The translations under genes were made by a program, and so were the position numbers. 64,000 nt of DNA from an uncultured bacterium (GTDB lineage Bacteria > Krumholzibacteriota > Krumholzibacteriia > LZORAL124-64-63), in assembly GCA_963727525.1 (NCBI GenBank), contig CAVSGO010000005.1:160001-224000 (forward strand), in the 5' to 3' direction. A model generated the notes under the pieces. That model saw only the letters and a list, made by a program, of their open reading frames with translations, was not told where the DNA came from and did not search any database. Position 1 is the first letter of the stretch; every line of letters starts with the position of its first letter. Positions 4,662 through 29,254 of the stretch are shown in pieces.

Positions 4662-4947
4662 GACAAAACCCCCTCGAACATGTTGATGTTGGCATACCGG
4701 ACATGATTTCGGGAATATAGCGTACCTGCGTAATGATACAGACTTCAGAAGTCGGAATCCACAGTACTGTCCGACGCGTTCATGAAGGTGCCCACGAGCC
4801 ACCATGCGTGATTTACTCCCACGACCACCCGATCGCCGATCCCTAAGCCAGGGAAAGATCTGTGCACGCTACGCACGGAAGACGGCGGCGTGCAGTCGCG
4901 CCAGCTGACTTTGATGAAGTGATCGCGATGCGGCCGCGCCCCCGTGA

Positions 4948-5628
4948 TCAGGGGGCACCGTGACCATAGAGCGACTTCACGTCGCCCCAGCTCCGAGACT
5001 GGACAGCCACCGCGTCGCAGGTGGTCTCGACCGCATGGTCGACGATGAGATAGGGTCCCTCGAAATTGACACCGACGTCACCGTAGACGTCGAGCACGGT
5101 TTCCGTCCCGAAGTACTCGTAGAGCGAGATCCCACCACCGATGCCGAGAACCAAGGGCCCCCAGTACCATGAAGGCATCCAGCATGAATCGGAACATGGC
5201 GCGATACCATGGCCGAATACACCACCGCTCACGACACGGCCGCGGATCAGCGGGGCACCGTGGGGATTGGCGATGGTTGAGCTGTGGAAACCGAATTCGA
5301 AACCGACGAGGTTGCCCTGGGTGTCGATTGCCCGGATCGAGTAACTGTTCGCAAGTTCCCGGTACGCCGGATAGTCGATGACCTGCAGCCCCTCGGTGAA
5401 CGCCACAGGTTCTTCGGTGAGCGGAACGCTGGCTGCACAGACACCCATGGCGTCGCGCACGACGGTGTAGCCGACCGTTTCGCCCCAGGCCGGCGGCATG
5501 GGATCAACGACGGTCACTGTGAGGGTCACGCCATCGCCGTCGCTGGTGGCGGTGATCGATGCCGTGAAAGCACGGGCCGGTACCGCACAGCTGATCAGAC
5601 CGAGCATCGTCAGGATCGTCGTCTTCAT
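4948..5628 (-). CDS. Secreted hypothetical protein with C-terminal SWGDVKSLY tail
   Basis: GGGGAG RBS before ATG 5628; signal peptide MKTTILTMLGLISCAVPARA; ends VAVQSRSWGDVKSLYGHGAP. Confidence 0.7.
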   Translation of the reverse strand: MKTTILTMLGLISCAVPARAFTASITATSDGDGVTLTVTVVDPMPPAWGETVGYTVVRDAMGVCAASVPLTEEPVAFTEGLQVIDYPAYRELANSYSIRAIDTQGNLVGFEFGFHSSTIANPHGAPLIRGRVVSGGVFGHGIAPCSDSCWMPSWYWGPLVLGIGGGISLYEYFGTETVLDVYGDVGVNFEGPYLIVDHAVETTCDAVAVQSRSWGDVKSLYGHGAP

Positions 5629-5870
5629 ATTCGTCTCCCCTCGACTGGCGACCATCGAAGCGCATTCGTCGCTTCGGGCGCGAGTAAACCATCGGCCCAA
5701 CTTGCTGTCATTGCCCTGCAATATCAAACCAAATTTATCGTATATTATTAAATAACAACGGCTTGCATGGCCCAAGACTTTCAGGAAACACGCCGTCCGT
5801 GTTAGAATCAAGCGTCAGGCATCTGTGCGTCCGCATCCTCGCACCTTGTTCCCACCGAGAGAGGTCGACC

Positions 5871-12198: not shown

Positions 12199-13438
12199 TC
12201 CCGGTGCTCTCGCCGTCGCCACCGTCGCGGTGGCGCCCCGTCGCCTCGCGGTGCTGGGCGGCGAGCCGGCGTTCGCCACGCCCCTGCACGTGGGCGCCCC
12301 GAACATCGGCGACCGTGCCGCGTTGCTGCGGCGGCTGGACACCCTCTTCGTGAGCCGGCGTCTGTCCAACAACGGACCGTTCGTGCGGGAATTCGAGGCG
12401 CGCGTGGCCGCGCTGGCCGGCGTGAAGCACGCCATCGCCATGTGCAACGGCACGGTGGCGCTGGAGATCGGCGCACGGGCCCTGAACCTGTCGGGCGAGG
12501 TGATCGTGCCGGCCTTCACCTTCGTGGCCACGGCCCACGCTCTCGCATGGCAGGGCATCACACCGGTGTTCTGCGACATCGATCCCGACACGCACGCCAT
12601 CGATCCCGACCAGATCGAGGCTCTCGTCACGCCGCGCACCACGGGCATCCTCGCCGTGCACCTGTGGGGGCGCCCTGCCCCTACGGCGCGGTTGCGGGCC
12701 GTTGCCGACCGTCATGGCCTCGCGCTCATGTTCGACGCGGCCCACGCCTTCGGATGCAGCCACGAGGGACACATGATCGGGGGCTTCGGCGACCTGGAGG
12801 TCTTCAGCTTCCACGCCACCAAGTTCCTCAACACGGCCGAGGGTGGCGCCGTGGTCACCAACGACGACCGCGTCGCCGAGCGCGTGCGCCTGATGCACAA
12901 CTTCGGATTCACGGGACTCGACACGGTGGAGGCCCTCGGCGTGAACGGAAAGATGAACGAGCTATCGGCCGCCGTGGGTCTGACATCCCTCGACCACATG
13001 GACGCGTGGATCGCGATCAACCAGCGCAACAAGGCGCTGTGGGCCGAAGCGCTCGAGCCGCTGCCGGGCATCACGCTCCTGCAGTGGGGCGAGCACGAGC
13101 ACCGCAACGATCAGTACGTGGTGTGCGAGGTGGACGCCGCCGCCGCGGGCCTGACGCGCGATGACCTCGTGACGGCATTGCGCGCGGAGAACCTGCTCGC
13201 CCGCCGCTATTTCTACCCCGGCTGCCACCGCATGGAACCGTACCGATCGCAGCCGCCAGCCGGTGGCTGGCACCTACCGGCCACCGAAGGGGTGGCCTCG
13301 CGGGTGATGGTGCTGCCCACGGGAACCACCGTCACGCCCGAGTCCATCGCGCGCGCGGGTCGGCTCATGGGCGAGATCGTCGCGCAAGCATCGGACGTGA
13401 CGGCCGCCGTGGCGGCGACGGAAACGATGAACGCCTAG
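12182..13438 (+). CDS. DegT/DnrJ/EryC1/StrS PLP sugar aminotransferase
   Basis: GGAGG RBS; NGTVAL, PAFTFVAT, FDAAHAFG, FSFHATK, EGGA, NGKMNE, RRYFYPGCH. Confidence 0.92.
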   Translation: MLTLGDPGALAVATVAVAPRRLAVLGGEPAFATPLHVGAPNIGDRAALLRRLDTLFVSRRLSNNGPFVREFEARVAALAGVKHAIAMCNGTVALEIGARALNLSGEVIVPAFTFVATAHALAWQGITPVFCDIDPDTHAIDPDQIEALVTPRTTGILAVHLWGRPAPTARLRAVADRHGLALMFDAAHAFGCSHEGHMIGGFGDLEVFSFHATKFLNTAEGGAVVTNDDRVAERVRLMHNFGFTGLDTVEALGVNGKMNELSAAVGLTSLDHMDAWIAINQRNKALWAEALEPLPGITLLQWGEHEHRNDQYVVCEVDAAAAGLTRDDLVTALRAENLLARRYFYPGCHRMEPYRSQPPAGGWHLPATEGVASRVMVLPTGTTVTPESIARAGRLMGEIVAQASDVTAAVAATETMNA

Positions 13439-14463
13439 GCGTGGACGACGCCCCGATGGGCGACCGCCTGCCACGGTCGCGCCGCGATGCGCGCGAGGAC
13501 CGCGGCGCGCTCGGCACGGATCTGCTTTTCCGCGGCGGGCACATCGGCCCAGCCCGGCTTGTCGGCGCGCTCGCGCGGCAGCAGTTCGGCCTCCAGCTCG
13601 GCCGTGGTGCGCGGGTCGTCGGTCTCGCACTCATAGCCGAACACGGCCATCGCCGGACCGCAGAGCCGCTCCACGTAGGCTGCCTCGGTAGCGTCGAGAC
13701 CGCGCTTCCATTTGCCGAAGTTGGACGCCATGACGGGCCGATCCACGTTCTTCCAGTCGTCGCTTCGGCCGGCCGCATCTTTCGCGGCAGCCGTGGTGTG
13801 GAATGCGAGCATGGCCCGATCCATGGGCAAGTCCACGGCCGCGCATGCGGCGGCGAGCTGGCTCTCAGGGTCAGCCACGAGATCCTCGTAGCGCAGCAGA
13901 TGGATGTCGCGGCCCGGATCGAGGTAGCCGAGCACCTGGATGAGCTGCTCCTGGTCTTCCTGCCACACCCGCGCCGCCCGCACGACGTCGCCCCGCAGGA
14001 TGGGCGAGCGCTTCCAGGACAGGGCCATGTCGCGCGGGTCGCGCACCATGGCCACGATCCTCAGACCAGGGAAAGCCTTCTGGACGAAGGGCAGGTAGCG
14101 GTAGAGGTGGTTCTCCTTGAGGAAGAGGCGGCTCTTGCCGGCAAACTTTGCCTCTGCCGAGAAGACCGTACGTACCAGGGCAGCGAGGCTGTGGCGCGGC
14201 GTGGCGGCGGCCAGATCCTCCGCGCTCCACGCGCACTGCCAGGCACCCACCCTGGTGGCCAGGATATCGGCTGCATCGCGACACAGTGTGCGCCAGGCGT
14301 CATCGTCGGCGAGGTTGCCGTAGCGTGGCCGGTTCTCGGCCAGGATGCGCAGGAGATGGGTGGGTGACGGCCCGCAACAATCGGGGTGCGCATCGAACAT
14401 CCGGGTGATCAGGTTCGAGCCCGATCGCTCCGAGCATATGAGAAAGATGACATCCGGAGTCAC
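13435..14463 (-). CDS. Sulfotransferase family protein
   Basis: GGGAG before GTG 14463; 5'-PSB-like ICSERSGSNL, 3'-PB MVRDPRDMALSW, RYEDLV. Confidence 0.85.
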   Translation of the reverse strand: MTPDVIFLICSERSGSNLITRMFDAHPDCCGPSPTHLLRILAENRPRYGNLADDDAWRTLCRDAADILATRVGAWQCAWSAEDLAAATPRHSLAALVRTVFSAEAKFAGKSRLFLKENHLYRYLPFVQKAFPGLRIVAMVRDPRDMALSWKRSPILRGDVVRAARVWQEDQEQLIQVLGYLDPGRDIHLLRYEDLVADPESQLAAACAAVDLPMDRAMLAFHTTAAAKDAAGRSDDWKNVDRPVMASNFGKWKRGLDATEAAYVERLCGPAMAVFGYECETDDPRTTAELEAELLPRERADKPGWADVPAAEKQIRAERAAVLARIAARPWQAVAHRGVVHA

Positions 14464-14651
14464 GGCAATCTCCCGAGTGGGGTTCCCCAAGGCGGCTCGG
14501 CGACCGACGGCCGCCTCGCCCCGTGCAATGTGGCGGTGCAATGCCCGTTCCATTTCCGCGGCTCTGGGCGCCGGCCGGCTGGACATCGTCCTGGACGAAA
14601 CGTACGATGGTGACGAAAGACGGGGCCCGCAGCATCGAGAAGGGATCCTGG

Positions 14652-15149: not shown

Positions 15150-17414
15150 CTACATCGCCCACGCCACCCGCAACGAGATGTCGCGGCCAGGATCCAGGGC
15201 GAAAGTCTTGTAGCGGCTCAGGAAGTCGCGGTAGGCGTGGTCGAGGAGATTGGCCACACGCAGGTCGAGACGCAGCGGGCGACCGGCGAACGTGCGTGTG
15301 ATGCCGGCCTCGAGGTGTAGGAGCACGTAGCCGGGCACAGGGACGTCGAACATCCCGAGGCGGGTCTGGCGACCGACGAGCTCGGTGACGAGACTGATGC
15401 GCGGTTGCGACGGGGCCAGGACGCGCCACGTCACGCCTACCCTTCCGCGCCGCGGTGGCATCAAGGGCAGCGGCGCGCCACTGTCGCGGTAAGAGCCACG
15501 CACGAGGTCGGCGCTGGCGTTCACGGCGACCGCGGATGTGGCCTGCACGCCGAACGTGACCTCCGCGCCGGTGAGAACGGCATCGGCTTGCTGGGCCCGG
15601 TAGTCGGCCAGGCCACCGGTGGAATCACCAGTGGCGGCCACGTGGATGAAGTCGTCGACGAGGTTGCGATACACCGACGCCTCGGCGTGGACACGCGCGA
15701 AGCGGCAGCGCACGCTGGCCTCGAGATCGAGGCTCTTCTCCGTCGTCAGTTCCGGATTGCCGTGCTCGTAGATCAGGTCGCCGATACGCGGACCGTTGGC
15801 GAACAGCTCAAAGGCGCTGGGGGCGCGCCATGCCCGGCCCACGTTGGCGGCGAGCGCCACCGAGGGTGCCACCCGGTAGACGGCGCCCAGGTCGCCCGTC
15901 ACGGCGCGGTAGGTGCGGGTCTCGTCGGCGTTGCCGACGCTGTCGTTCGCGTCAGCGTGGAGGCGTCGCGTGTCGCCGCGCGCGCCCGCCAGCAGGCTCC
16001 AGCGGCCGAGCGCGAGTTCTTCGGTGGCGAACGCCGCGCCCCACCGCACGTCGGTGTCGGGCACCAGTACCACCGGGCCACGCGAGTCGCCGTTCTGCAG
16101 CGCCCCGCTCAGGCCGAGAGTGCCGCGCAGCGATCCGCCGGCGTCGTGGTGGCCGAGCAGGTCGACCGTGGTCGTCATCAGCAGGAGATCGAAGGCGGTG
16201 GCTTCCTTTCTCTCCGCCTTGGCGGCCGGGAACTCGTCCGACAGCTCGATCAGCGAGTGACGCTGCCACTGCGTGCGCGCTTCCCACCGCCAGGCTCCGC
16301 GCTGCAGGCTGCCATCGAGTTGCACGCGGTCGTCCGCCACCATGCGCTCCGGACCCTCCTCCTGGGCGTCGTTGCCCGTGTCCATGGTCGGGCCGCCCGC
16401 CTCGAGCAGCTTGTACTCGCCCGCATAGCGCGCGTAGCGCAGGCTGGCCTGGCTATCGGCGCGCCAGAGGCCGATGGCACCCTCGCCGTTGAAGGCGCTG
16501 AAGCCCGTGTTGGGGATCTCGCCGGTCGGCGTGTGCATGTCGTCGGCGTGGCGGCCGATGCCCGCCAGGCGCCAGCCCAGGTTCTCGCGCGCACCCTCGA
16601 CGCGCACGCCGGCCCCCACCTCGGCGTTGGCGCTGCCCAGCGAGAGCTGGGCGCCCACGCGGGTGAACGGTGCCCTGCCGCGCGCGCGCGGCAGGGGTTC
16701 GGGGATGGCGTTGATCACGCCACCCAGCGCGTCGGACCCGTAGAGTACGCTGGCGGGGCCACGGATCACCTCGACACGCTGCGCGAGCGCGGCGTCGACG
16801 GGCGGACCGTCCTCGTCGCTCCAGGAGTAATCCTCGAGGCGATGCCCGTCATCGAGCACGAGCACCCGCGCCCCGGTGAGTCCGCGTACCACCGGCTTGC
16901 CGATCTGCTGCCCGGTGTCCAGGGACCGCACGCCGGCTACGTCGTCGATGGCCCGCGCCAGCGACACGCCGGGTTCGCGCCGCATCTGCTGAGGATCCAC
17001 TTCGGCGTACGGCAGCGGCGTGGTGAACGGATCGTGCAGGGTGCGCGTGGCGGTCACGGTGACGGCCGGCGAGGCGAAGGGCGTGGCTTGCAGCACGACG
17101 GTGAGCGGTCCGGGCGCCGGCACCTGCACCGTGGTCATCACGGCGCCGTACCCGGTGTGCCGCACGAGCAGCACGCAGCGGCCAGTCGGCACGTCGGCGA
17201 TGGTGAAGCCCCCCGATTCATCCGTGGTGGTCCGCAGACTCAGCCGGGGCGCGATCACGGTGGCGTCCGCGATCGGTGCGCCCTGCGCGTCGGTGACGGT
17301 GCCGGTGAGGAGCGCCAGAGAACCGGGTTCCGGAGAGCCCGGCGCAGAGAATCCTCGACCCACGATGCCGAACAGACCGACGAGAAACAACCCGATGACG
17401 ATGATGCGCGACAC
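15150..17414 (-). CDS. TonB-dependent outer-membrane receptor with N-terminal carboxypeptidase-regulatory-like domain
   Basis: AGGAGG before GTG 17414; TGTVTDAQGAPIADATV; VTVTATR; KPVVRG; RVEVIRGPASVLYGSDALGGVIN; PGRDISLRVAW C-terminal strand. Confidence 0.92.
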   Translation of the reverse strand: MSRIIVIGLFLVGLFGIVGRGFSAPGSPEPGSLALLTGTVTDAQGAPIADATVIAPRLSLRTTTDESGGFTIADVPTGRCVLLVRHTGYGAVMTTVQVPAPGPLTVVLQATPFASPAVTVTATRTLHDPFTTPLPYAEVDPQQMRREPGVSLARAIDDVAGVRSLDTGQQIGKPVVRGLTGARVLVLDDGHRLEDYSWSDEDGPPVDAALAQRVEVIRGPASVLYGSDALGGVINAIPEPLPRARGRAPFTRVGAQLSLGSANAEVGAGVRVEGARENLGWRLAGIGRHADDMHTPTGEIPNTGFSAFNGEGAIGLWRADSQASLRYARYAGEYKLLEAGGPTMDTGNDAQEEGPERMVADDRVQLDGSLQRGAWRWEARTQWQRHSLIELSDEFPAAKAERKEATAFDLLLMTTTVDLLGHHDAGGSLRGTLGLSGALQNGDSRGPVVLVPDTDVRWGAAFATEELALGRWSLLAGARGDTRRLHADANDSVGNADETRTYRAVTGDLGAVYRVAPSVALAANVGRAWRAPSAFELFANGPRIGDLIYEHGNPELTTEKSLDLEASVRCRFARVHAEASVYRNLVDDFIHVAATGDSTGGLADYRAQQADAVLTGAEVTFGVQATSAVAVNASADLVRGSYRDSGAPLPLMPPRRGRVGVTWRVLAPSQPRISLVTELVGRQTRLGMFDVPVPGYVLLHLEAGITRTFAGRPLRLDLRVANLLDHAYRDFLSRYKTFALDPGRDISLRVAWAM

Positions 17415-17531
17415 GGTGCATCCTCCTGCACGTCGGGGCGATATGCGGACGCGGCCACGAAAGTAGATCGCGGCGGCGGCGCAATCAAGAAAACGTGAGG
17501 TCAGGCGCACTCGCGCGGTTCTGGACCGCGG

Positions 17532-18476
17532 CTAGTCGCGCGTAAGAGCGAGATCGTCCACCTGCAGCACCACGGTGTCGGCAGGTGACGCCACGTAGAA
17601 CAGCAGCCCGTGCATCATTGCCAGTTCGAGCGGGCGGTCCCCGTGGTGCGTGCGCAGCGATGGCAGATCGATCGCGAACCGTTGCCACTGCCGGCCCGTC
17701 CGCACGCGCCGAAATGCGAAGTCGTGGTCCTCGTGATAGCTGTCGTCGTCGAGCCGGACCATCACGTTCACACTGTCGGTGGGCGCCTGCATCACACGCA
17801 CCGCGCCCGTGAGCCGCGGGTAGCCCGACCAGTCGCGTGGGAAGCCGCGCATCTGCACGCCCGGATACGGGATGGGCGGCAGCACCGCGCGCAGCACGCG
17901 GCCGTGCGCAGGATCACCACTGTTCACCACCTGCATCGCGGCCCCGTTGCTCGGGCCCCACAGGGCGCCGGCGTGGGCGTCGTGAAAGTCGGCCAGGCGC
18001 GGAAACTCCTGCCGCGACACCGCCTGCGCGAGCAGGAGGCGCGGGATGAACCGCAATTGCCAGGGCACCAGCAGCGCCAGCGCGATCCCGGCCGCCAGCG
18101 CGATCCAGGAGCGCCAGCGGCGATACACGAGCCAGCAGCCGGCGATGCCGATCCCGACGAGATCGAGGCTGAAGTCGCGCCAGCGCGCGCTGCGGCTGGT
18201 GAGGAGCTGAAGGAACTCGATGCCCCCGCCCAGCAGCATCGCCAGGATCACGCCCAGGACGATGGCCCGTACCGGTCCGCAGCGCCGCGCGGCCAGATAG
18301 GCGAAGACCAGCGTGGCCAGGCCGAGCAGAACCACATGCACGCGGTCGCCGAGGGCGGCGATCACGAGGTTGCGCTCGAGCACCCGCGGAATGGGGACCA
18401 GAAAGACGGCGAGAAAGACCGCTGCGACGAGCAGCCACCAGGGCCGCGGCCGCAACGGGGATCGAGGTTCAGCCAT
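17532..18476 (-). CDS. VanZ-like membrane protein with C-terminal carbohydrate-binding-like beta-sandwich
   Basis: D-x-x-H, GGGIEFLQLLTSRSARWRDFSLDLVG (VanZ-like); C-terminal PRDWSGY...VRLDD...VDDLAL. Confidence 0.65.
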   Translation of the reverse strand: MAEPRSPLRPRPWWLLVAAVFLAVFLVPIPRVLERNLVIAALGDRVHVVLLGLATLVFAYLAARRCGPVRAIVLGVILAMLLGGGIEFLQLLTSRSARWRDFSLDLVGIGIAGCWLVYRRWRSWIALAAGIALALLVPWQLRFIPRLLLAQAVSRQEFPRLADFHDAHAGALWGPSNGAAMQVVNSGDPAHGRVLRAVLPPIPYPGVQMRGFPRDWSGYPRLTGAVRVMQAPTDSVNVMVRLDDDSYHEDHDFAFRRVRTGRQWQRFAIDLPSLRTHHGDRPLELAMMHGLLFYVASPADTVVLQVDDLALTRD

Positions 18477-19851
18477 TGGCACCGTCGCGCTCGATGGCCC
18501 AGTGCCACAGCTCGGGATACTGCGTCTTCGTCTTCTGCTTGTGGGTGGTGACCATCTCGTTCGCCGCCAGCTCGAAGAGTTTCTGCTGCGGAGACTTGAG
18601 CGGGTGTGCGTCGCCCAGCACCTCCACCGACTGGATCGCCACGTCCGGCACGCGCGGCGTGGCCACGCGCGGGGTGGCGAGGTTGAGCACATCACCGATG
18701 CTGGTGATGCCGGCATCCCGCCGCCGGTTCACCACGTCGTTGTACCCCCGCGACCGCGGGGCGAAGAGCTGCGCGAGGAACTGCAGGATCGACGTGTGGT
18801 CGAGCGGCTCCTTGTAGACGGTGCGCGAGGCCACGAGCGGCGAGACGATGATGCCCGGCACCCGCACTCCGGTGGTGGTGAAGGCCGGGTACTCGGCGGC
18901 GGGGCGCGGATCATAAGGGATGTTCAGCGGCGGCACGTGATCGTAGAAGCCACCATGCTCATCGTAGTAGACCACCATCATCGTCTTCGCCCAGCGCCCT
19001 GGGTTCGCCGTGAGCGCGCGATAGATGAGGCGCTGGAAGTGCTCGCCGGGCGCCACGGGCAATGGCGCGTGGTTATCGTTGGGCTTGTCGGTGCCCAGGT
19101 GCGGCGCATCGCCGTAGGACGGCTCGATGATGATCACCTGCGGGAACGTGTCGTCGGACTCGGAAAGCACGTCCAAGGCCAGATGCTCGAAGCGCTTGAA
19201 ATTCTTGCTCAGCACATGCTTGAACGCCCCCAGCAAGGTGAAGAACGACAGGCCGTCGTGGTACACGCGCCAGCGAACGTCATGGGCGTCGAGCCAGTCG
19301 AGAAGCGTGTCGTCGCGCGGCGGCAGCACGCTGCCGGTGTGGTCCACGTGAGCGGAACCCGTCCAGGCCATCAGGCGATTGGGCAGCGTGCTCGTGGGCA
19401 GCGCGGAGAAGAAGCGATCGCACACGGCGAAGTTCGAGGCCAGGAAGGACGTGATCGGCACCTCGTTCGGTGGATAGAATCCCAGGGGCTCGGGCGTGCG
19501 CGTCCAGTTCACCGTGGTGTGCTGGTAGTAGGCCTCCACGAAGCCGCGCATGGTATGGCGGCCGGAGGTGCGGCTGAAGGCGAGTTGCTTCGCCACCTCC
19601 TCGCGCTCGTGGGGCAGGTCGCTGGGCAGGATGCCGTCGCGCATCGTGAACGGGTAGTACGGCTGGGTCGCGTAGGGATTCTCATACGCCGGCTGGTCGA
19701 GCGGATCGCGCAGCCCATCCACCTGCAGACCGGTGTCGAACTGCCGGTAGCTGAGATGCCCGAGCATGTGGTCGAAGCTGCGGTTCTCCATCATGACCAG
19801 CACGACGGTGTCCACCAGCTTGCGAATCTGCTTCAGATCGAGCGCGGGCAT
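18469..19851 (-). CDS. Phosphoesterase family (phospholipase C / AcpA-like acid phosphatase)
   Basis: MMENRSFDHMLG, CDRFFS...PNRL, DNHAP, YDEHGGFYDHVPP, GVRVPGIIVSP, DHTSILQF. Confidence 0.9.
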   Translation of the reverse strand: MPALDLKQIRKLVDTVVLVMMENRSFDHMLGHLSYRQFDTGLQVDGLRDPLDQPAYENPYATQPYYPFTMRDGILPSDLPHEREEVAKQLAFSRTSGRHTMRGFVEAYYQHTTVNWTRTPEPLGFYPPNEVPITSFLASNFAVCDRFFSALPTSTLPNRLMAWTGSAHVDHTGSVLPPRDDTLLDWLDAHDVRWRVYHDGLSFFTLLGAFKHVLSKNFKRFEHLALDVLSESDDTFPQVIIIEPSYGDAPHLGTDKPNDNHAPLPVAPGEHFQRLIYRALTANPGRWAKTMMVVYYDEHGGFYDHVPPLNIPYDPRPAAEYPAFTTTGVRVPGIIVSPLVASRTVYKEPLDHTSILQFLAQLFAPRSRGYNDVVNRRRDAGITSIGDVLNLATPRVATPRVPDVAIQSVEVLGDAHPLKSPQQKLFELAANEMVTTHKQKTKTQYPELWHWAIERDGANG

Positions 19852-20561: not shown

Positions 20562-21983
20562 ATGAACCGTAGGCTAGCGAATCCAACGGCAAGCGGCAAC
20601 CGCCATTTCCGACTGCATAGATCCTTTATATGGTCGGCCCTGTTCGCGCTACTTCTCGGCGGCTGCGCCGACGAGTCCATCACACCGCCATCGCCGCCGG
20701 ATACGCCCGATTACACCTTCGACGGCGCCATGCCGCGCAACGTGCTTGTGAGCTATCTCACGCGCGCCATGACCATGAGCGACCTCTGCCTCGACGACGA
20801 TTGGCCGAACCAGGCTTGGGACGCCAACCTCGCCATGATCGCGCGGCTGCGCCCCATGCTGCTCAGCCGCGTGATCTACGCCTGGGGCTGGGAAGACGAG
20901 TACCTCGATCGGATGGGTGAACTGGCGACCCGGACCGCGGCAATCCACGCCATCGATCCCCGGATCATTCTGCAGGGCGCCATCTTCGAGTTCGTGAGCG
21001 AACGGATCGAGCAGGTGCCGGTGCCCGCCGCCGTGCAGGCGGCCTTCGGCCTCACGCCGGTGGCGCGTACCTACGACCTCGACCGCATGCGGCCCGAGCA
21101 GGGCGACGCATACGAGTATGCCGGGTGGCCCTTTGTCGCCATCCAGCCCGACATCACCCGTCTCGAGACCCAGATGTGGTACTACCAGCTCGCCACGCGC
21201 TACATCGACGCCGGACTCGAGGCCATCCATCTGGGCGCCTTCCCGGCGGTCGCCAGCCACGACCATGGCTACGTCCAGACTCAGGCCCTGCTGCAGCGCA
21301 TCCGCGCATACGCCGGCGACCACGCCCGCCGCCACTGGGTGCTGCTCGACGCGCACACGCACGGCATGACCTGCGGCAAGCAACTGCTGCTCGACTTTCA
21401 TTCCTGGCCGCTGCGCCCACGCGAGATCGCCGGCGCTGCCGACCAGGACGCCACGCTGCAAGCCGGCTACCTCGACGCGATCTACGGCCGCAGCCAGGGC
21501 GGGGTGACGCCCGCGGGCTGGTACGCGCACAGCCTGCCCTTCCTGGTGGAGTTCGACAACGGCTACGCCGGCGGCATTGCCGGCGCCTGCAACCTTCCCG
21601 AGTGCGTGTGGGGCAACGACGAGATCACATGGTTCGCCGAGCAATCCCGCACGCGCCGCGATGCGATCCTGCGCAACTTCGCCGCCCAGGTGCGCGCGCT
21701 CGACCCCGACGGCTGGCTCGCGATGCCCGGCATGCGGCCCATCGTTCCGCGCGACGGCGGCGACTGTCCGTTCTACTTCCTGGTGGACGAGAGTGCTTTT
21801 CCGGACGGGGGAAGTCAGGAGAATGCCGTGGCAAGCATCTGGGATGCGACGACCGATACCTTGCGCGAGAGAGAGGGCCCGGGTGCTGATCCGGGCCCCC
21901 CGGTTGGCCGCTGTGCGCGAAGGGAATCACGGATGCGGCCTCGGCATCCATCCCATTGGACGCCGGAGGCCACGGGAAGGTAA
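20562..21983 (+). CDS. Hypothetical lipoprotein, possibly TIM-barrel glycoside-hydrolase-like
   Basis: Lipobox LGGC; ILQGAIFE, YIDAGLEAIHLG, LLDAHT, LPFLVEFDN, WGNDEITWF. Start and C-terminal tail uncertain. Confidence 0.6.
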   Translation: MNRRLANPTASGNRHFRLHRSFIWSALFALLLGGCADESITPPSPPDTPDYTFDGAMPRNVLVSYLTRAMTMSDLCLDDDWPNQAWDANLAMIARLRPMLLSRVIYAWGWEDEYLDRMGELATRTAAIHAIDPRIILQGAIFEFVSERIEQVPVPAAVQAAFGLTPVARTYDLDRMRPEQGDAYEYAGWPFVAIQPDITRLETQMWYYQLATRYIDAGLEAIHLGAFPAVASHDHGYVQTQALLQRIRAYAGDHARRHWVLLDAHTHGMTCGKQLLLDFHSWPLRPREIAGAADQDATLQAGYLDAIYGRSQGGVTPAGWYAHSLPFLVEFDNGYAGGIAGACNLPECVWGNDEITWFAEQSRTRRDAILRNFAAQVRALDPDGWLAMPGMRPIVPRDGGDCPFYFLVDESAFPDGGSQENAVASIWDATTDTLREREGPGADPGPPVGRCARRESRMRPRHPSHWTPEATGR

Positions 21984-22015
21984 CAGCGGGATCGACCCAT
22001 GGTGCGGGCCGATGA

Positions 22016-22837
22016 CTACAGCGATACCCGCAACACGTTCTTCAGCGCCAGCCCGGCGGCCAGCGAGAGCACCATGAACGCCACCAGCCACGACATCTCG
22101 ATGCCGAGGTAGCGCGTGTGGCGCGCCGGGAGTTGCAACGTCATCGCGGCGAGGGCGCCATCGCGCGGCAGCGACGGCGCACCGGGGGCGAGCAGCGGGG
22201 CGAGGGTGTGCGCGGAGCTCGTCTCGTTCAAGCGCGGCAGATCGCCATCGACCATGAGAGTGCGCCGTCCCACCTCAGTGCCATCGAGCATCACGCGCAG
22301 ATCGTGCCGGCCGACGCTGCCGGCGCCCAGACGCCAGGCTGCGGCGCCAGTGACGCGGTCGCGTACCGGACCCGCCTGCACCGTCACCGGCGACGGCACT
22401 TCGAGCTGGAGATCGGACACGCGGTCCCGCTGACCCGGCGCGAGCGTCACCGTGAACACCGCGGGTTCGTCCACGCGCAGGGGCCGGTGCGCGAAGTGGC
22501 TGTCGAGCTGCGCGAGCGTAATCACCATGGGCACGGCGAGGGCGAGCAGCGCAGGCAGGCTGAGCGCGAGATAGCGGAGGTTGGCCTTCGCGAGGTCACG
22601 CTGGATGCGGCCCACCACCGAGAGATGCTCCTGGTACAGCCCCATCTCGAAGATGTGGCCGGTGAGGCGGTCGCGCGCGGCCACGAGCCGCTTCTGGGGC
22701 GTGACGGCCTTGAACAGCAGCAGGGCCCACACCGACGTCACGGCGCTCACGAATAGCATCGCCCACGCGGCGTGCGCCGCGAACGGCCGCACGAGCAGGT
22801 CGAAGAGACCGTTGATGGTTTGGCTGATCATCGTCAT
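22016..22837 (-). CDS. Membrane protein resembling EMC3/TMCO1/DUF106 (Oxa1 superfamily) with an inserted soluble beta domain
   Basis: TM1 (AMLFVSAVTSVWALLLFK), helical hairpin, TM2 (YLALSLPALLALAVPMVITLAQL), ~130-aa beta-rich insert, terminal TM (GIEMSWLVAFMVLSLAAGLALKNVL). ORF is solid; the family call is by pattern only. Confidence 0.55.
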   Translation of the reverse strand: MTMISQTINGLFDLLVRPFAAHAAWAMLFVSAVTSVWALLLFKAVTPQKRLVAARDRLTGHIFEMGLYQEHLSVVGRIQRDLAKANLRYLALSLPALLALAVPMVITLAQLDSHFAHRPLRVDEPAVFTVTLAPGQRDRVSDLQLEVPSPVTVQAGPVRDRVTGAAAWRLGAGSVGRHDLRVMLDGTEVGRRTLMVDGDLPRLNETSSAHTLAPLLAPGAPSLPRDGALAAMTLQLPARHTRYLGIEMSWLVAFMVLSLAAGLALKNVLRVSL

Positions 22838-22845
22838 GGCTCGCG

Positions 22846-23043
22846 TCAGGAGATGTAGCCCAGACCCTGCATGCGCCGACGGATCTCTTCCTCCGTATCG
22901 CCGCCCTTCTCGAACTTCGCGATCTCTCGCTCGACGATGTGCTTCACGAACTCCTCGGGCGAGGCGTAGCCGGCGATCCCGCTGTACTTCTTCACCTTCT
23001 CGAGAAGCTCCTTGTCGAGCTTGATCTTGTCGCCGCCGAACAT
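22846..23043 (-). CDS. 65-aa protein, ribbon-helix-helix-like N-terminus plus EEEIRRRMQGLGYIS tail
   Basis: GAGGAG RBS; G/C-ending codons; IKLDKELLEKVKKYSGIAGYASPEEFV RHH-like pattern. Confidence 0.75.
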   Translation of the reverse strand: MFGGDKIKLDKELLEKVKKYSGIAGYASPEEFVKHIVEREIAKFEKGGDTEEEIRRRMQGLGYIS

Positions 23044-23060
23044 CGTGGTCTCCTCTCTCG

Positions 23061-25019
23061 CTAGCGGTCGCGGAACAGATCGCCCCCGACCATATCGGCC
23101 GGTGGGGTGATGCCGAAGAGCCCGAGGATCGTGGGCGCCATGTCCACCAGCGCGGGATCCGCGCGGCGGATGGGCCGGTTGGCCATGATGATGCCCGGCA
23201 CCTCATCGGCGGCGATGCAGTGGTCGCCGCTCCACTTCAGCATGTTGTCCTCGAACTCCATCTCCGGGATCTGACCCAGCGCTGATTCGTTGCTGCCGCG
23301 CCAGCCGCGGTAGTAGCCCACATCGATGTCGGGCCCGCGGCCGGCCATGTCCCCATGGTACACCTGATCGGCACGGTAGGCGTGCTTGATCGCGCGGCGG
23401 CCGTCGAGGGGATCAACCACTGCCTCGAGGCCCGTGCACAGCTCGGCGAGCAGGGCCTCCTGCGCCGCGCCCGGCGGCACGATGCCGTGGGCTTCGCGGC
23501 CGGCGAGGTTCAGGTACAGCCCATTGATGCCCACGGCGTAGGCGCGCGAGCGCGACCAGTCGACACCCTGCAGCAGGTCCACCTGCGCCTGATCGACACC
23601 GTCCTTCAGCACGAGGTAGCCGTGGTCCAGCAGCCAGGTATTGAGGTGGAAGGCGCGGTTCCAGGGTGCGAAGCCGTGGTCGCTCATCACCATGATCACG
23701 GCGTCGTCGCCGGCACGATCCATGGCAAGGCCGAGCACACCGTCGAGCTCCCGGTACACGTCGCGGATGCGCTGCGCTTGGCGCGGGTCGCTCGCCGCAT
23801 GGGTGGGCGAGTCGGGATCCATGTTCCGCCACGTCATGTGGCAGGTCTGATCCGGCGAATTGTAATAGAAGAAGAGGAAGCCCGACTTCAACGTGGCGAA
23901 ACGATCCAGCTCGTGGCGAAGCTCGTGCGTGCGCTCCTGGAGCACGAGGTCGCTCTGCTGCACATACTGGTCGTCGGTGAGGAACCCGTTTTCCAGGCCG
24001 CTCGTGTCATCGGGCAGCCCCTGCGTGTAATATGGGCCCACGGCCTCGGCCAGGTCGCGGCTGTAGCCGTCGGGCGTGCTGATGGGCATCTCCGGGTGGG
24101 CAGGATCGATCTGCACCGGCGTGACGTAGAGGCGCAGCGTCGGCTCGATCGAGATGAGGTAGAAGCGGCAGATTCCGTGCACCGTCTTCAGCAGCGGCAC
24201 CATCGGATAGCCGATGCTCACCCAGTCGCTCCACTCGCCCTCGCGAAGCACGATCTCGGTACCGTCCACGTCGAGCCAGGCGTTGCGCGATTGCGAGTCG
24301 ACGGTGCCGTTCACCACGACCTTCGCTTCCGGATCGCCGGTGCGCCACGTGTTCGCCGGACCGGGCAGCGAGGCCGTGAACCGACCCTTGCGCACGAACA
24401 CAGCGTCCACGCGGCCGCCGGCGAGGTCGCGCTTGATCGGCGGGTCGTCGGTGATCAGGGTGGAGATACCGTAGTTGCCGGTGATGTCGGGCGTGCCCAT
24501 GCCCGACAGGCTGCGCGCCTCGCACTCCACGGGCGGAAAATTCGACGGCACCTTGAAGATCGTCGCATCCACGCCGGCATCGGCGAGGATCTGCCAGAAT
24601 GCGGTACCGTGGCGCAGGTTGCGCACGTCGCCGCCCTCGCGCGGCAGTTTCCACTTGCCCAGATGGATGAACCGCGTGGGGCCCTTGGCCTCGCTCGCCG
24701 AGAAGAACGGCATCAGGGTGACCGGGTCGCGGTGGATGAAATCGAAGATCCCATGGCCGCCCGGATCGCGTCCGGTGATGAAATTGGACCACGCTACCGG
24801 CGACTGCGGCGGGATCGACGTGCCGAACGCGCTCAGGCTGCCGCCCTCCGCCAGGAAGCGGTCGAAATTGGGCATGGCGCCCTCGGCGCGGAATCGCGCC
24901 AGTAGTTGCGGATCCATGCCGTCGAACCCGAGCACGAGCACGCGCGGGCCGTCGGCCGCCTGCGCGACCGCGCCGGCAAGCAGCGCGATGAGGATGAACG
25001 CTCCGGCCAGCCGCTTCAA
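23061..25019 (-). CDS. Alkaline phosphatase superfamily (type I phosphodiesterase/NPP-like), secreted
   Basis: GGAGG RBS, TTG start overlapping the upstream TGA; signal peptide; VLGFDGMD, PQSPVAWSNF, DQTCH, MSDHGF, WSGDH, D-x-APT. Confidence 0.85.
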   Translation of the reverse strand: MKRLAGAFILIALLAGAVAQAADGPRVLVLGFDGMDPQLLARFRAEGAMPNFDRFLAEGGSLSAFGTSIPPQSPVAWSNFITGRDPGGHGIFDFIHRDPVTLMPFFSASEAKGPTRFIHLGKWKLPREGGDVRNLRHGTAFWQILADAGVDATIFKVPSNFPPVECEARSLSGMGTPDITGNYGISTLITDDPPIKRDLAGGRVDAVFVRKGRFTASLPGPANTWRTGDPEAKVVVNGTVDSQSRNAWLDVDGTEIVLREGEWSDWVSIGYPMVPLLKTVHGICRFYLISIEPTLRLYVTPVQIDPAHPEMPISTPDGYSRDLAEAVGPYYTQGLPDDTSGLENGFLTDDQYVQQSDLVLQERTHELRHELDRFATLKSGFLFFYYNSPDQTCHMTWRNMDPDSPTHAASDPRQAQRIRDVYRELDGVLGLAMDRAGDDAVIMVMSDHGFAPWNRAFHLNTWLLDHGYLVLKDGVDQAQVDLLQGVDWSRSRAYAVGINGLYLNLAGREAHGIVPPGAAQEALLAELCTGLEAVVDPLDGRRAIKHAYRADQVYHGDMAGRGPDIDVGYYRGWRGSNESALGQIPEMEFEDNMLKWSGDHCIAADEVPGIIMANRPIRRADPALVDMAPTILGLFGITPPADMVGGDLFRDR

Positions 25020-27145
25020 CGCGCGCCTCCTGACCCGTTGGCGAAGATGCTGCGTCCGGTCATGTACGGCGGCGTGGCCAGGCCGAGCAGATCGAGTACC
25101 GTGGGCGCCAGATCCTCGAGGGACGGCCTGGGTATCGTGAACGGCACCGTCGAGAAGAGCACGCCGGGCACCTGGCGCGGATCCATGCAGTGGTCGCCTG
25201 ACCAGCTCCGCGTGTTGTCGCAGACCACGGCATTCGTGACTCCGCCCACAACCGCGTCCCAGTCGGCCCGGTACCCGGGCTTGTAGCCCACCACCACGTC
25301 GGGCCCGTTCTCGCGATATGGCCCGGAGTAGACCTCCTCGCAGGCCCAGAGGTCGGCGATGGCGGGGCCGGGCCACGCGGGATCGGGATCGGGCAAGCCG
25401 CGCAGCCTGGCGATGAGTTCTTGCTTGAGCGCCGGCGCGTCGTCGGGATCCACGCAGCCGTCTTGCTCGCGGCCCTGGATATTCAGGTAAAAGCCCGTGA
25501 GGCCATTCGTGTAGGCGCGGGTACGCGGCCAGTCGATCTCGCTCACCTCGTGACGCACACCTTGGGGGATGGGCGGCAACGGACCCGTGGCCGGATCGCT
25601 CTTGAGGAAGAGGTAGCCTTGCTCGCGGAACCAGGCGTTCAGGTTCACGCCGCGCTTGAAGGGCTTGAAACCGTGGTCGGAGCAGATAAGCAGCACGTCG
25701 CGCGGATGCAGCTTCGCGAGCGTGCGTCCCACGAGGTCGTCGGCGCGGCGATAGAGGTCGTCGATCGTGTCCTTGTGCTTCTCGGTATCCTTGCCGCGAT
25801 TCGCGGGGTGGTCGGCGTCGCGGTAGCGGAAGAACATGTGCTGGATACGATCGGTGGCGTCGAAGACCACCGAGACCACGCCGTCCGGCTGGCGGTCGAG
25901 GGCGTGGAAGAACTGCGCCTCGCGCTCGGCATGGATGCCCCAGGCCTGGTCGAGGAAACCCTGCTCGTCGAGCACGCGCTCGTTCAGGGCCCAGGTATCT
26001 TCCGCGAGGCCGAGGGTGGCGAAACGCCCCTGTAGCCTGGCCAGCGTCATGGCCAGGTGCGGCGGATTGCTCAGCGGCAGCGCCGGCTTCTGCGGGTCGA
26101 TGTGCACCGGCGACACGTAGAACGAGAAGTGCGGCGCAAAGCTCGTGACACGCACCTTGCAGATGCCGTGGGCGGCCAGGCGTCCGCTCTGGAAGCGTAC
26201 CGTGATCCAGTCGGAGTAGGTATCCGGCCCGAGCGTGAAGGTCTCGTCGCCGATGCGGAAGTCGGCGCGCTGGGCGGCGCGGTCCACCGTCACGGCCACG
26301 GGTACCGTGAGTTCGCCCTGGCCGGAGGGATGGTCGGGGCCGATGAGGTCGGCCGTGAAGCGCCCCCCGCCAGTGGGCACGAGCGTCAGGCGCACGCCGC
26401 CGACCGTCTCGCCGTCCTTCGGCGCTTCGCCGGGCTCGGTGTAGTGCGAGAACGTGCCCTGGGTGCCGCGCAGATCCGGCACGCACATGGCGGAGAGCTG
26501 CTTGCCGCTGAACTTGTCGGGCGGGAACGTGATCGGGATGCGCAGGATCGAGCTGGCGATGCCCGCCTCGCCACACACCGTCCAGAACGGCTTGGAACGG
26601 CGCAGTAGCTCGTACTTCGGTCCGCCACCGGGCAGGCGGATGGGCCCCAGCTTGCGCCCCGCGCCGCGATGCAGCCGCGTGGACGACAGGATAGGCAGGT
26701 GGGTGGCGCGGTCGCGCGACAGGAAGTCGAAGATATTGTGCCGCGAGGCGTCCACGCCCGTCGCGAAGGTGGACCAGCCCACCGGCGACATGGCCGGGTA
26801 CGTCGTTACTAGCGGTCGGAAACCGCCGCTCTCCTTGATGGCGCGCAGGTTCGGCAGCTCGCCGCGCCGCCACATCTGCCGCACGATGCCGGGATCGACC
26901 CCGTCGAGCCCCAGCACCACCACCCGCCGCGCCCGTGCCTTGCGGTGCCGGCCGCGGCCGCGGATCGACCGCACCACCACGCGCACCGGCCACAGCACAA
27001 TGGCCGCCACGGCGAGAAAGGCTCCCGCGATGGCGAAAAGGAACGACCCGCCCAGCGCGAACCCGGCGCCCGGCCCGATGTAGGCGGGCACGGCGACGAC
27101 GCCGAGGTGCAAGGCTACGATACCGGTAAGAACGGACACGAGCAT
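25016..27145 (-). CDS. Alkaline phosphatase superfamily (NPP-like) with N-terminal AYIGPGAG plus TM anchor
   Basis: VLGLDGVD, AMSPVGWSTF, DRIQH, CSDHGF, WSGDH, DLAPT; start codon approximate. Confidence 0.85.
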   Translation of the reverse strand: MLVSVLTGIVALHLGVVAVPAYIGPGAGFALGGSFLFAIAGAFLAVAAIVLWPVRVVVRSIRGRGRHRKARARRVVVLGLDGVDPGIVRQMWRRGELPNLRAIKESGGFRPLVTTYPAMSPVGWSTFATGVDASRHNIFDFLSRDRATHLPILSSTRLHRGAGRKLGPIRLPGGGPKYELLRRSKPFWTVCGEAGIASSILRIPITFPPDKFSGKQLSAMCVPDLRGTQGTFSHYTEPGEAPKDGETVGGVRLTLVPTGGGRFTADLIGPDHPSGQGELTVPVAVTVDRAAQRADFRIGDETFTLGPDTYSDWITVRFQSGRLAAHGICKVRVTSFAPHFSFYVSPVHIDPQKPALPLSNPPHLAMTLARLQGRFATLGLAEDTWALNERVLDEQGFLDQAWGIHAEREAQFFHALDRQPDGVVSVVFDATDRIQHMFFRYRDADHPANRGKDTEKHKDTIDDLYRRADDLVGRTLAKLHPRDVLLICSDHGFKPFKRGVNLNAWFREQGYLFLKSDPATGPLPPIPQGVRHEVSEIDWPRTRAYTNGLTGFYLNIQGREQDGCVDPDDAPALKQELIARLRGLPDPDPAWPGPAIADLWACEEVYSGPYRENGPDVVVGYKPGYRADWDAVVGGVTNAVVCDNTRSWSGDHCMDPRQVPGVLFSTVPFTIPRPSLEDLAPTVLDLLGLATPPYMTGRSIFANGSGGAR

Positions 27146-27403
27146 TCCCGCGGGCAGGACGCAAGGTGCCACCGGCCCGGATGGCTGGAGAACGCGCAAG
27201 TGACAGGGCCCAGGGCCGTGGCACGGACTTGCGAGATGGTAATCATGGCGTCGGGAGCGAGCAACCCACGAGCCGAACGACAAGTTATCCCGGATCTGCC
27301 ACAAAGTCATACATCGGAACGAGTTGTTTGCCGAGAATGGCGGTAGGGACTAGGTTCTACTGGTCAAGAACCCACCAGTTCCCCCCTGGAGAGGACCCGA
27401 TCG

Positions 27404-29254
27404 ATGCCCGTCACCGCCGCGCGCACTCTTCTGCTGGCCGCCGTCGCGAGCCTCGTGGCCGGGTTGCTGGGCGGGTGTTCCCGCGGGTCCGTGACCTCCC
27501 TGGCCGGGTCCGTGAAACCGGGCCAGGCCGCCGGATACAACGTGGTGCTCGTGACCATCGACACAGCCCGCCGCGACCACTTCGGCTGCTACGGACACGC
27601 CGAGGCGCGCACGCCCACCATCGACGCCCTCGCCCACGACGGCGTGCTCTGCGACGACGCCGTCACCAGCGTACCGCTCACGTTGCCGTCGCATACGACG
27701 CTCCTCACGGGACTCTACCCGCCTCACCATGGCGTGCACGACAACGGCATCTCCCAGCTCGGCACCGAGCCGCCGCTGTTGCAGGCCGAGCTGCGCGACC
27801 ACGGCTACGCCACCGCAGCCTTCGTGGGTGCTTTCGTGCTCGACGAACGCTTCGGCCTGGCCCGCGGCTTCGACCACTACGACTTCGAGGTGACCGACGA
27901 GGGCTACCATCCGCAGATGACCGAGTTCAACGAGCGCTCCGCCGGCGCCGTCACCGACTCGGCGCTCGCCTGGCTCGACCGCCACCATGCTCAGGCGCCG
28001 TCGCAGCCGTTCTTCACCTGGCTCCACTACTTCGATGCGCACCACCCGTACACGTCGCCGCTGGCGTCATTGCCGGAGTTCGCCGGCAAGCCGTACGACG
28101 CGGAGATCGCCTATGTCGACCAGCAGTTCCAGCGCGTGGTCGGCTGGCTCATCCGGCAAGGTCTGCGCGATCGCACGATCATCGTCGTCACTGCCGACCA
28201 CGGCGAGTCGCTGGGCGAACACGGCGAGAGTACACACGGCATGTTCATCTACGATTCCACCCTGCGAGTGCCTCTGGTGATCTCGTGCCCGTCCCTCATC
28301 TCCGGTCCGCTGCGACTGCGTGACGTCACGGTGGGTCTGGTGGACATCCGGCCCACGATCGACGACCTGCTCGGCATCACGCCCACCGGCGTCCACGACG
28401 GGCGCAGCTTCCTGGCGGACCTGCCCCCCGACCGGGCCATCTACATCGAGACGGAGGGGCCGCGCCGCATGGCCAGGTGCAGTCCACTGCGCGGCCTTCG
28501 CTCGCACGTCGCCAAGTTCATCGAGGCACCGGAGCCCGAGTACTACGACCTTGCGCAGGATGCGGCCGAGTTGCACAACCTCTACAGCACGAGCGCCGCG
28601 GCCGTGGCGCCGCTGCGCGATGAGCTAGCATCCGTGCTCTCCAGCGGGACCACCTCGCCCCAGGCGGAACACGAGATCACCGAGGAAGAGAGGAGCCGCC
28701 TGCGTTCGCTCGGCTATACCTTCACGGCCGCGTTGGGCGATACCGCCAGCCTGCCCGACCCGAAGTGGCAGATCGAGTACTTTAATGAGGGAATGGAGGC
28801 CGAGCAGCTCTACGCCCAGGGCGATTACGCCGCGGCGGCCGACCTGGCACGCAAGGTCGTCCGAGGTTGCGGCGGCTGCATGAATGCCCAGCGCGTGCTC
28901 GCCTTCAGCGAGCTGCGTCTCGGCAACGACGACGAAGCCATCGCCATGCTACACGACGACGTCAAGAAAAATCCCGACGCATTCCTGGTGCGTTCACTCG
29001 TCCAGGCCCTCATCCTCACCAAAGACTATCCGGCCGCCCTCGACGTGATCGGCACCTACGACAGCCTCTACCCGCGCGACGGCTGGTTTCCCCTGCTACG
29101 AGGCGACTGCCAGTCGGCCCAGGGCGACTACGATGACGCGCTCAAGAACTACGAACGGGCCATGCGTATCGACGCCGCCCGCTGCGGCCGCCGCGCCAGT
29201 GCCCGCATCGAGGCTACGCGGGAGAAGTTGAACGACTTGGGGAGCCCACACTAG
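27404..29254 (+). CDS. Sulfatase-like hydrolase lipoprotein with C-terminal TPRs
   Basis: Lipobox LGGC; NVVLVTIDT, TLPSHTTLLTG, WLHYFDAHHPY, TADHGE, HG, RLRSLGY, then TPR helices. Confidence 0.88.
   Translation: MPVTAARTLLLAAVASLVAGLLGGCSRGSVTSLAGSVKPGQAAGYNVVLVTIDTARRDHFGCYGHAEARTPTIDALAHDGVLCDDAVTSVPLTLPSHTTLLTGLYPPHHGVHDNGISQLGTEPPLLQAELRDHGYATAAFVGAFVLDERFGLARGFDHYDFEVTDEGYHPQMTEFNERSAGAVTDSALAWLDRHHAQAPSQPFFTWLHYFDAHHPYTSPLASLPEFAGKPYDAEIAYVDQQFQRVVGWLIRQGLRDRTIIVVTADHGESLGEHGESTHGMFIYDSTLRVPLVISCPSLISGPLRLRDVTVGLVDIRPTIDDLLGITPTGVHDGRSFLADLPPDRAIYIETEGPRRMARCSPLRGLRSHVAKFIEAPEPEYYDLAQDAAELHNLYSTSAAAVAPLRDELASVLSSGTTSPQAEHEITEEERSRLRSLGYTFTAALGDTASLPDPKWQIEYFNEGMEAEQLYAQGDYAAAADLARKVVRGCGGCMNAQRVLAFSELRLGNDDEAIAMLHDDVKKNPDAFLVRSLVQALILTKDYPAALDVIGTYDSLYPRDGWFPLLRGDCQSAQGDYDDALKNYERAMRIDAARCGRRASARIEATREKLNDLGSPH

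Follow-up and report, generated by a model that had tools for sequence, protein, structure and literature searches.

The gene at positions 22016..22837 (minus strand) of the stretch of contig CAVSGO010000005.1 analysed here, a stretch of 64,000 nucleotides (nt) that is called the window as a whole, encodes a membrane protein that is supported, by sequence profiles of its relatives, as a divergent bacterial member of the DUF106/Ylp1 branch of the Oxa1 superfamily. This gene, referred to as the YidC-like gene, is the last of four genes and is preceded by those for AlkP_A and AlkP_B, two enzymes of the alkaline phosphatase superfamily, and for a ribbon-helix-helix (RHH) protein. We consider, with a probability of about 0.5, that the YidC-like protein is an operon-dedicated insertase or assembly partner of the N-terminal membrane anchor of AlkP_A, which carries the motif AY[I/V]GPGAG. 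The protein may thus be viewed as a bacterial variant of a known superfamily within an undescribed conserved system, where the homology is supported and the function is plausible.

A large and conserved protein family

The open reading frame (ORF) translates into 273 amino acids (aa) and a stop codon, and the database copy of the protein is 100% identical, with a length of 271 aa due to a start at the third codon. A total of 176 relatives at E<=1e-3 were retrieved by a word-indexed search among 8000 scored candidates. Using phmmer against 1.84 billion cluster representatives (50% identity clusters), we found 1665 relatives at E<=1e-3, 933 at E<=1e-10 and 34 at E<=1e-30, and the 150 matches listed are mostly full-length, with sizes of about 270-280 aa. 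A chance ORF at 22016-22837 was ruled out because the family is large and conserved. Many members carry the IMG label 'uncharacterized membrane protein (DUF106 family)', and single members are labelled Krumholzibacteriota, Nitrospirae, Acidobacteriota, Aminicenantota or Planctomycetota, labels that serve as leads only.

Three sets of sequences were used for profiles and conservation: A1, with 32 close homologues of 48-76% identity; A2, with 65 diverse members of 24-55% identity; and A3, with 27 sequences of a distant subfamily, partly overlapping A2. Thirty-six columns are invariant in A1, and Q48, Y89, W168, R169, G176, P218, W250 and V271 are nearly so in A2. The conserved polar residues of A2 in or at the ends of the transmembrane (TM) segments are S31 (88%), K/R43, S/T46, Q48 (97%), N86, Y89 (94%), W250 (98%), S/T258 and K/R266. 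Conservation around TM2 comprises P103 and Q110 besides N86 and Y89, while that of the immunoglobulin (Ig)-like domain described below is carried by W168, R169, G176 and P218.

Assignment to the DUF106/Ylp1 branch

Profiles of the more diverse members tie the family to a single protein of known structure. The A2 profile matched only one sequence in the PDB, MJ0480/Ylp1 (5c8j; DUF106, PF01956, COG1422), with E 2.6e-8, and the A3 profile again matched MJ0480 only, with E 5.1e-9. In the A2 alignment, residues 7-118 of the query, from the N-terminal helix through TM1 and the hairpin to TM2, correspond to residues 8-123 of the chain. TM3 is reached by a second, weak stretch (247-272 to 172-197), in which W250, S258 and K266 are paired with the W, S and R of MJ0480. 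The family PF01956 (EMC3_TMCO1) itself was matched by 10 of the 65 A2 members, with a best E of 4.8e-8. The similarity to DUF106/EMC3_TMCO1 profiles that had been proposed from the sequence alone (the sequence-only reading) was thus recovered by way of distant relatives. The membership is transitive, because neither the query nor its close clade A1 gives a match and the link is carried by those relatives. Searched alone against Pfam and NCBIfam, the YidC-like protein was assigned to no family, and its sole Pfam match was Filamin at E 0.19.

The same genome holds an ordinary YidC, as the sequence-only reading had assumed for a bacterium. PF02096 was found at C2:136183-136764 (E 2e-63), together with an interrupted match at C5:788632-789218, whereas the YidC-like gene gives no PF02096 match and is modelled with three TM segments versus the five-TM core of bacterial YidC. 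The YidC-like protein is therefore not the general insertase of this cell. The A2 profile retrieved one copy only from the genome, which is the gene under study. The interrupted match on C5 consists of two pieces with two TGA codons inside, and it could represent two short genes or a paralogue that is broken or frameshifted.

Predicted structure and topology

An AlphaFold2 (AF2) model of the YidC-like protein was built from the 32 homologues of A1, with a mean predicted local distance difference test score (pLDDT) of 89.7 and a predicted template modelling score (pTM) of 0.78. The model displays the layout described in the sequence-only reading, namely an N-terminal helix, TM1, a helical hairpin, TM2, a beta-rich insert and a last TM segment, all on the minus strand. 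The N-terminal helix (residues 2-19, 22781..22834), predicted to lie outside, is followed by TM1 (residues 23-45, 22703..22771), in and after which S31, K/R43, S/T46 and Q48 are conserved. A cytoplasmic helical hairpin (residues 48 to about 90, 22568..22696) comprises helices 48-67 and 72 to about 90, of which the second runs on as TM2 to residue 116 (TM2, about residues 91-116, 22490..22567), so that the boundary between the two is approximate. An Ig/filamin-like beta domain of ~130 aa (residues 119-248, 22094..22483), predicted to be periplasmic, fills the loop between TM2 and TM3. TM3 (residues 250-266, 22040..22090) contains the conserved W250, S/T258 and K/R266.

Mean net charges over the 65 A2 members are -0.06 for residues 1-22, +5.5 for the loop between TM1 and TM2 (residues 43-92), -0.4 for the beta domain and +1.4 for the C-terminal tail. 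This pattern fits an N-out/C-in topology and a periplasmic position of the Ig-like domain, which is the arrangement predicted here for the three-TM core. The cytoplasmic ends of the TM segments bear conserved polar residues, and it is also plausible that the core contains a hydrophilic groove, lined by the conserved polar residues S31, K/R43, S/T46, Q48, N86, Y89, S/T258 and K/R266.

The fold of the model was compared by alignment to 48,161 representative chains (VIA-align). Only two chains reached Z>=8, and both belong to the Oxa1 superfamily, in line with the earlier proposal of an Oxa1-type core. The first is 7tut_8 (Z 11.6; 136 residues aligned with a root-mean-square deviation (rmsd) of 3.6, model residues 17-273), and the second is 3wo7_A, the YidC of B. 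halodurans (Z 8.4; 153 residues aligned, rmsd 6.8). The length of 7tut chain 8, 177 residues, fits that of TMCO1. The entry is a ribosome-multipass translocon of the endoplasmic reticulum, and it is described in an excerpt of one report as containing the TMCO1-OPTI complex (PMC11169918). Chain 8 is presumably TMCO1 according to entry composition and chain length. A Foldseek search of the whole model against the PDB found Ig/filamin-type repeats only (E about 3e-3 and above, target TM-scores 0.55-0.59) and left the helical core unmatched.

Organization and conservation of the operon

Four tightly packed genes are arrayed on the minus strand in the order AlkP_A (25016..27145, with the start codon at 27145 inferred), AlkP_B (23061..25019), the gene of the 65-aa RHH protein (22846..23043) and the YidC-like gene. 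The TTG start of AlkP_B overlaps the TGA stop of AlkP_A, and a gap of 8 nt separates the RHH gene from the YidC-like gene. A convergent ORF on the plus strand ends 32 nt downstream of the YidC-like gene, which indeed closes a hydrolase operon as had been claimed from the sequence. A consensus scan for promoters and terminators across 21700-27600 gave no signal above shuffled sequences.

Both enzymes match PF01663 above the curated cut-off of 23 bits (AlkP_B, E 5.7e-30; AlkP_A, E 2e-24), and they are paralogous with about 35% identity. Neither has a relative among PDB sequences at E<=1e-3. AlkP_B is predicted to be exported because it begins with a signal sequence, which is a cleavable Sec-type signal in the window (MKRLAGAF...AQA|AD) and a Tat signal (RRDFLK) in distant relatives. 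AlkP_A begins with a short hydrophobic leader and the invariant motif AY[I/V]GPGAGFA; a TM helix comes next, and the basic cluster WP[F/V]R...R..RG.K then leads to the enzyme domain. In the window this anchor region lies at 26927..27145 (minus strand), with AYIGPGAG from 27085, the TM helix and, after it, WPVRVVVRSIRGRGRHRKARARR as the basic cluster. The positive-inside rule predicts a cytoplasmic location for the enzyme domain of AlkP_A. The description of both enzymes as membrane-anchored phosphodiesterases in the sequence-only reading therefore holds for AlkP_A, which has a TM anchor and a domain predicted to be cytoplasmic, but not for AlkP_B, which is exported according to its signal sequence.

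The 65-aa protein models as a ribbon-helix-helix fold with a third, C-terminal helix (AF2 pLDDT 89.3; helices 11-24, 29-45 and 51-60). Its top Foldseek matches are the RHH domains of NikR, CopG, Arc and PutA, with probabilities up to 1.00 and E 0.2 and above, and the best PDB match of its profile is pArc at E 0.047. Among same-phylum loci it is more conserved than any other gene of the set, with 71-82% identity, and it retains 44-68% in distant loci (44-82% to the window copy over 35 aligned sequences). The motif GLGY at its C-terminus is invariant and extends to GLGYIS in most copies. Many genomes of families f5 and f8 possess a further RHH65-like gene with a weaker match (E 1e-6 to 1e-8), located about 8-9 kb from the operon copy, for example G019:C1:2084882-2085076 versus 2093647-2093835.

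A total of 112 loci were compared, including 32 from same-phylum genomes (A1; labelled Krumholzibacteriota and similar) and 80 from metagenomes (A3), whose YidC-like proteins are 24-29% identical to the query. The four-gene set of AlkP_A, AlkP_B, RHH and YidC-like genes stays linked across them. The RHH gene is directly upstream of the YidC-like gene in 31 of the 32 same-phylum loci, the exception being L014, where about 3 kb separates the two genes (2569-6625). AlkP_B precedes the RHH gene in all 32, and AlkP_A precedes AlkP_B wherever the contig reaches. Among the metagenome loci the RHH gene was found upstream in 70 of 80, the other ten having at most 624 nt of upstream DNA, and AlkP_B and then AlkP_A follow farther upstream wherever the DNA reaches. 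The conservation of the four-gene operon, brought forward earlier as a check, thus extends to the distant loci.

A third, shorter AlkP paralogue without signal peptide is encoded upstream in many of the metagenome loci, and many Krumholzibacteriota loci have another, lipobox-bearing AlkP-like gene on the downstream side. We regard the third AlkP gene as accessory because the window's own genome lacks an orthologue and gives weak paralogous matches only. In locus L030 (8001-8820), frameshifts or assembly errors divide the YidC-like gene, AlkP_A and AlkP_B into two ORFs each. A class I/II aminotransferase is encoded shortly downstream of the YidC-like gene in about 25 of the 80 metagenome loci. 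When 15 of these loci were scanned, an ADP-forming acyl-CoA synthetase-like gene was found upstream in about 8 and a thioredoxin-like gene in several others.

Distribution within the phylum

Profile searches of 201 sampled genomes of the phylum found the YidC-like gene in 117 and the RHH gene in 117. The two genes are heavily skewed to the same families: f1 (YidC-like 81/86, RHH 80/86), f5 (21/23 and 23/23) and f8 (10/12 and 10/12). They are scarce in f4 (3/42 each) and f7 (1/8, in genome G033, and 0/8), and neither was found in f2 (0/12 each), f3 (0/7 each), f6 (0/9 each) or f9 (0/1 each). Five f1 genomes (G055, G102, G163, G178 and G190) lack both genes, and genome G123 has the YidC-like gene without an RHH match. 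The survey denotes a pattern and not a statistic, because related genomes are not independent samples.

A variant pairing the anchor with the YidC-like protein

Genome G033, which belongs to the same class in another family, contains a different arrangement. Here the A2 profile gave a weak match (E 1e-7) to the core region only, in a YidC-like protein of 234 aa whose beta insert is shorter. This protein is aligned to A2 by hhalign with 95% probability (E 3.1e-8) over TM1, the hairpin and TM2. The gene order is a fused ATP-sulfurylase/adenosine-phosphosulfate (APS) kinase, that is a phosphoadenosine-phosphosulfate (PAPS) synthase, an ASST-type arylsulfotransferase, a 92-aa anchor protein, the YidC-like protein and a Sulfotransfer_3 protein. 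In the stand-alone anchor, encoded directly upstream of the YidC-like gene, a leader precedes AAYVGPGTG, which is followed by a TM helix and WPFRALRRWMKKRKG. With five relatives, this form is rare. The anchor module and the YidC-like protein thus travel together even without AlkP enzymes, and this pairing is the main reason why we propose the anchor as client or partner. The G033 cluster is present in two near-identical copies at the ends of two contigs (C1:1-4000 and C78:1-4000), which are possibly an assembly duplicate.

The motif AY[I/V]GPGAG occurs exactly once in 60 of the 112 loci, always in frame at the N-terminus of AlkP_A, and the remaining 52 loci show no complete AlkP_A start. It was also found once only in the window's own genome.

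Genes related to sulfate esters are also found around the operon of the window. A Sulfotransfer_3 gene (13438-14586, minus strand) lies 7.4 kb downstream, and a sulfatase-like tetratricopeptide repeat (TPR) protein is encoded divergently just upstream of AlkP_A (27404-29251, plus strand). The genome has five Sulfotransfer_3 genes, one of them near the operon, and its APS kinase is located on another contig. The ORFs of the 112 other loci yielded no homologue of the window sulfotransferase. None was seen among 56 flank ORFs scanned in 15 metagenome loci, where an ADP-forming acyl-CoA synthetase on the upstream side and an aminotransferase on the downstream side prevail. The sulfation link of the operon, to which the PAPS synthase and sulfotransferase genes of the G033 cluster also point, is a lead.

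Proposed function and alternative explanations

Oxa1-type insertases classically handle clients with short N-terminal tails or hairpins. We propose that the YidC-like protein would insert the short-tailed anchor of AlkP_A, or a hairpin formed by it, and would probably remain bound to the anchor after insertion. The Ig-like domain would then face the exported paralogue AlkP_B, and on the cytoplasmic side the basic hairpin would be turned towards AlkP_A, the tailed RHH protein or both. In this proposal, the role as dedicated insertase or chaperone for the co-encoded enzymes, as the sequence-only reading put it, is narrowed to one candidate client; the client, its stable binding and any insertase activity are putative.

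Several points weigh against this proposal. The near-invariant anchor motif and Ig-domain residues fit a permanent complex at least as well as a transient insertion, and a general YidC should manage such an anchor, which leaves the need for a dedicated insertase unexplained. The positive-inside rule is the sole basis for placing AlkP_A in the cytoplasm. With a C-terminal tail of only about 7 residues and a short hairpin, the protein shows no evident means of docking to the ribosome co-translationally in the way of bacterial YidC. The family assignment itself has gaps: the YidC-like protein alone matches neither PF01956 nor any PDB chain, none of the 32 A1 members matches PF01956 in Pfam, the A1 profile finds no PDB chain at E<=10, and 55 of the 65 A2 members have no PF01956 match at E<=1. 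A PF01956 search of the window's own genome also did not recover the YidC-like gene.

The main alternative is possible but clearly less probable than a dedicated insertase. According to it, the YidC-like protein is no insertase but the permanent core of a membrane-straddling enzyme machine, whose Oxa1 fold pairs with the AlkP_A anchor as EMC3, GET1, TMCO1 and archaeal YidC do with EMC6-like partners. The hydrophilic groove would serve as conduit or scramblase for a putative amphipathic or lipid-linked phosphate- or sulfate-ester substrate passing from cytoplasmic AlkP_A to periplasmic AlkP_B. The prediction of paralogous enzymes on opposite sides of the membrane conforms to such a machine, as do the almost invariant residues of anchor and Ig-like domain, the G033 cluster with its stand-alone anchor and YidC-like gene beside a PAPS synthase and two sulfotransferases, and the sulfotransferase and sulfatase-like genes near the operon in the window. 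YidC has moreover been termed a lipid scramblase in the part of a report consulted (PMC11997395). However, five anchor segments compared with Pfam at E<=10 gave noise only and no EMC6-type family, the flanks of the other loci lack the sulfotransferase as described above, and the APS kinase of the genome lies apart from the operon.

A broader form of this alternative, which we hold to be doubtful, would make the YidC-like protein and the AY[I/V]GPGAG anchor the bacterial counterpart of EMC3-EMC6, GET1-GET2 and TMCO1-OPTI. The pair might form the core of a machine that links cytoplasmic and periplasmic AlkP-type enzymes (sulfotransferases in the variant) and moves an amphipathic substrate bearing a phosphate or sulfate ester across the inner membrane, with the RHH tail as cytoplasmic adaptor.

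It is unlikely that the YidC-like protein acts as a membrane sensor or anti-repressor, whose cytoplasmic hairpin sequesters the GLGYIS-tailed RHH regulator and thereby controls the operon. The RHH fold with its C-terminal helix, resembling NikR, CopG and Arc, and the position of its gene, which adjoins and co-occurs with the YidC-like gene, agree with a regulator. Yet a repressor with this degree of conservation would demand an equally conserved operator, the Oxa1 fold has no known sensor role, and the invariant AlkP_A anchor would be left unexplained. A second general-purpose insertase backing up YidC, suggested by Oxa1-superfamily membership, is very improbable given the patchy distribution that the RHH gene follows in the phylum (with none in the sampled f2, f3 and f6) and a location that, in the loci compared, adjoins RHH and AlkP genes wherever the DNA reaches, not secY and ribosomal genes as described for archaeal YidC in an excerpt of PMC5898192.

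Comparison with known systems

MJ0480/Ylp1 is among the known systems closest to the YidC-like protein. The two proteins share three TM segments, an N-out/C-in topology (predicted here for the YidC-like protein), a short C-terminal tail, the Q after TM1, N and P in TM2, and W, S and a basic residue in TM3. The YidC-like protein differs in its bacterial host, in the ~130-aa Ig-like domain of the TM2-TM3 loop, in its location in an enzyme operon instead of a secY/ribosomal neighbourhood, and in that the query itself is below Pfam detection.

Bacterial YidC (PF02096; 3wo7, B. halodurans YidC2), the second-best fold match, shares the superfamily core, and small-anchor clients are of the kind it handles. 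In YidC of the E. coli type, a large periplasmic domain is present before the core and not between core TM2 and TM3. A precedent for an Oxa1-family protein devoted to one client is found in Cox18 for Cox2 and in SpoIIIJ/YidC2. These belong to the YidC/Oxa1 branch instead of that of DUF106, and their genes are not known to share an operon with the client in such a manner.

A resemblance to TMCO1, EMC3 and GET1 is denoted by the best structural match 7tut_8, if it is TMCO1 as argued above. Unlike the YidC-like protein, these proteins have no beta insert and differ in host and partners, and the family profiles gave no sequence-level match to them. TMCO1, EMC3, GET1 and archaeal YidC are described in an excerpt of PMC8675477 as heterodimers with small EMC6-like membrane partners, to which the AY[I/V]GPGAG anchor might be a parallel.

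In the portions of the literature at hand, DUF106 is termed 'archaeal and eukaryotic' (PMC5868721), non-archaeal PF01956 sequences are described as EMC3 and TMCO1 (PMC8675477), and COG1422/pfam01956 is equated with archaeal YidC next to secY (PMC5898192). DUF106/Ylp1-type insertases are treated in these portions as archaeal, with EMC3, TMCO1 and GET1 as eukaryotic descendants, and YidC as the bacterial form (PMC5868721, PMC8675477, PMC8662606, PMC5898192). The same partial sources on DUF106, Ylp1, the Oxa1 superfamily and PF01956/COG1422 contain neither a bacterial Ig-bearing DUF106 family nor an operon of this kind.

With 1665 cluster representatives, the family is a large bacterial group of the archaeal/eukaryotic Oxa1 branch that coexists with YidC and is tied to one operon, and it raises the question how the DUF106 branch entered or persisted in bacteria. 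One insertase-like protein and one candidate client or partner offer a genetically simple setting for anchor recognition and small-partner pairing. The operon also represents an envelope system that is as yet unstudied, in which one of two paralogous enzymes is predicted on each side of the membrane. If the pairing of a heterodimeric machine were true, the archaeal/eukaryotic Oxa1 branch with a small partner would work in bacteria beyond general protein insertion.

Other genes of the window

Several genes continue on the same strand beyond the operon. These encode a phosphoesterase of the phospholipase C/acid phosphatase type (18469-19851, minus strand; PF04185, 7e-59), a weak VanZ-like membrane protein below the Pfam cut-off (17532-18716, minus strand) and a TonB-dependent receptor (15150-17510, minus strand), none of which is kept beside the operon in the other loci. 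Farther away, a large gingipain-type C25 peptidase and another large protein (5763-9425, plus strand, and 1863-4805, minus strand) both end in a FlgD_ig-like domain.

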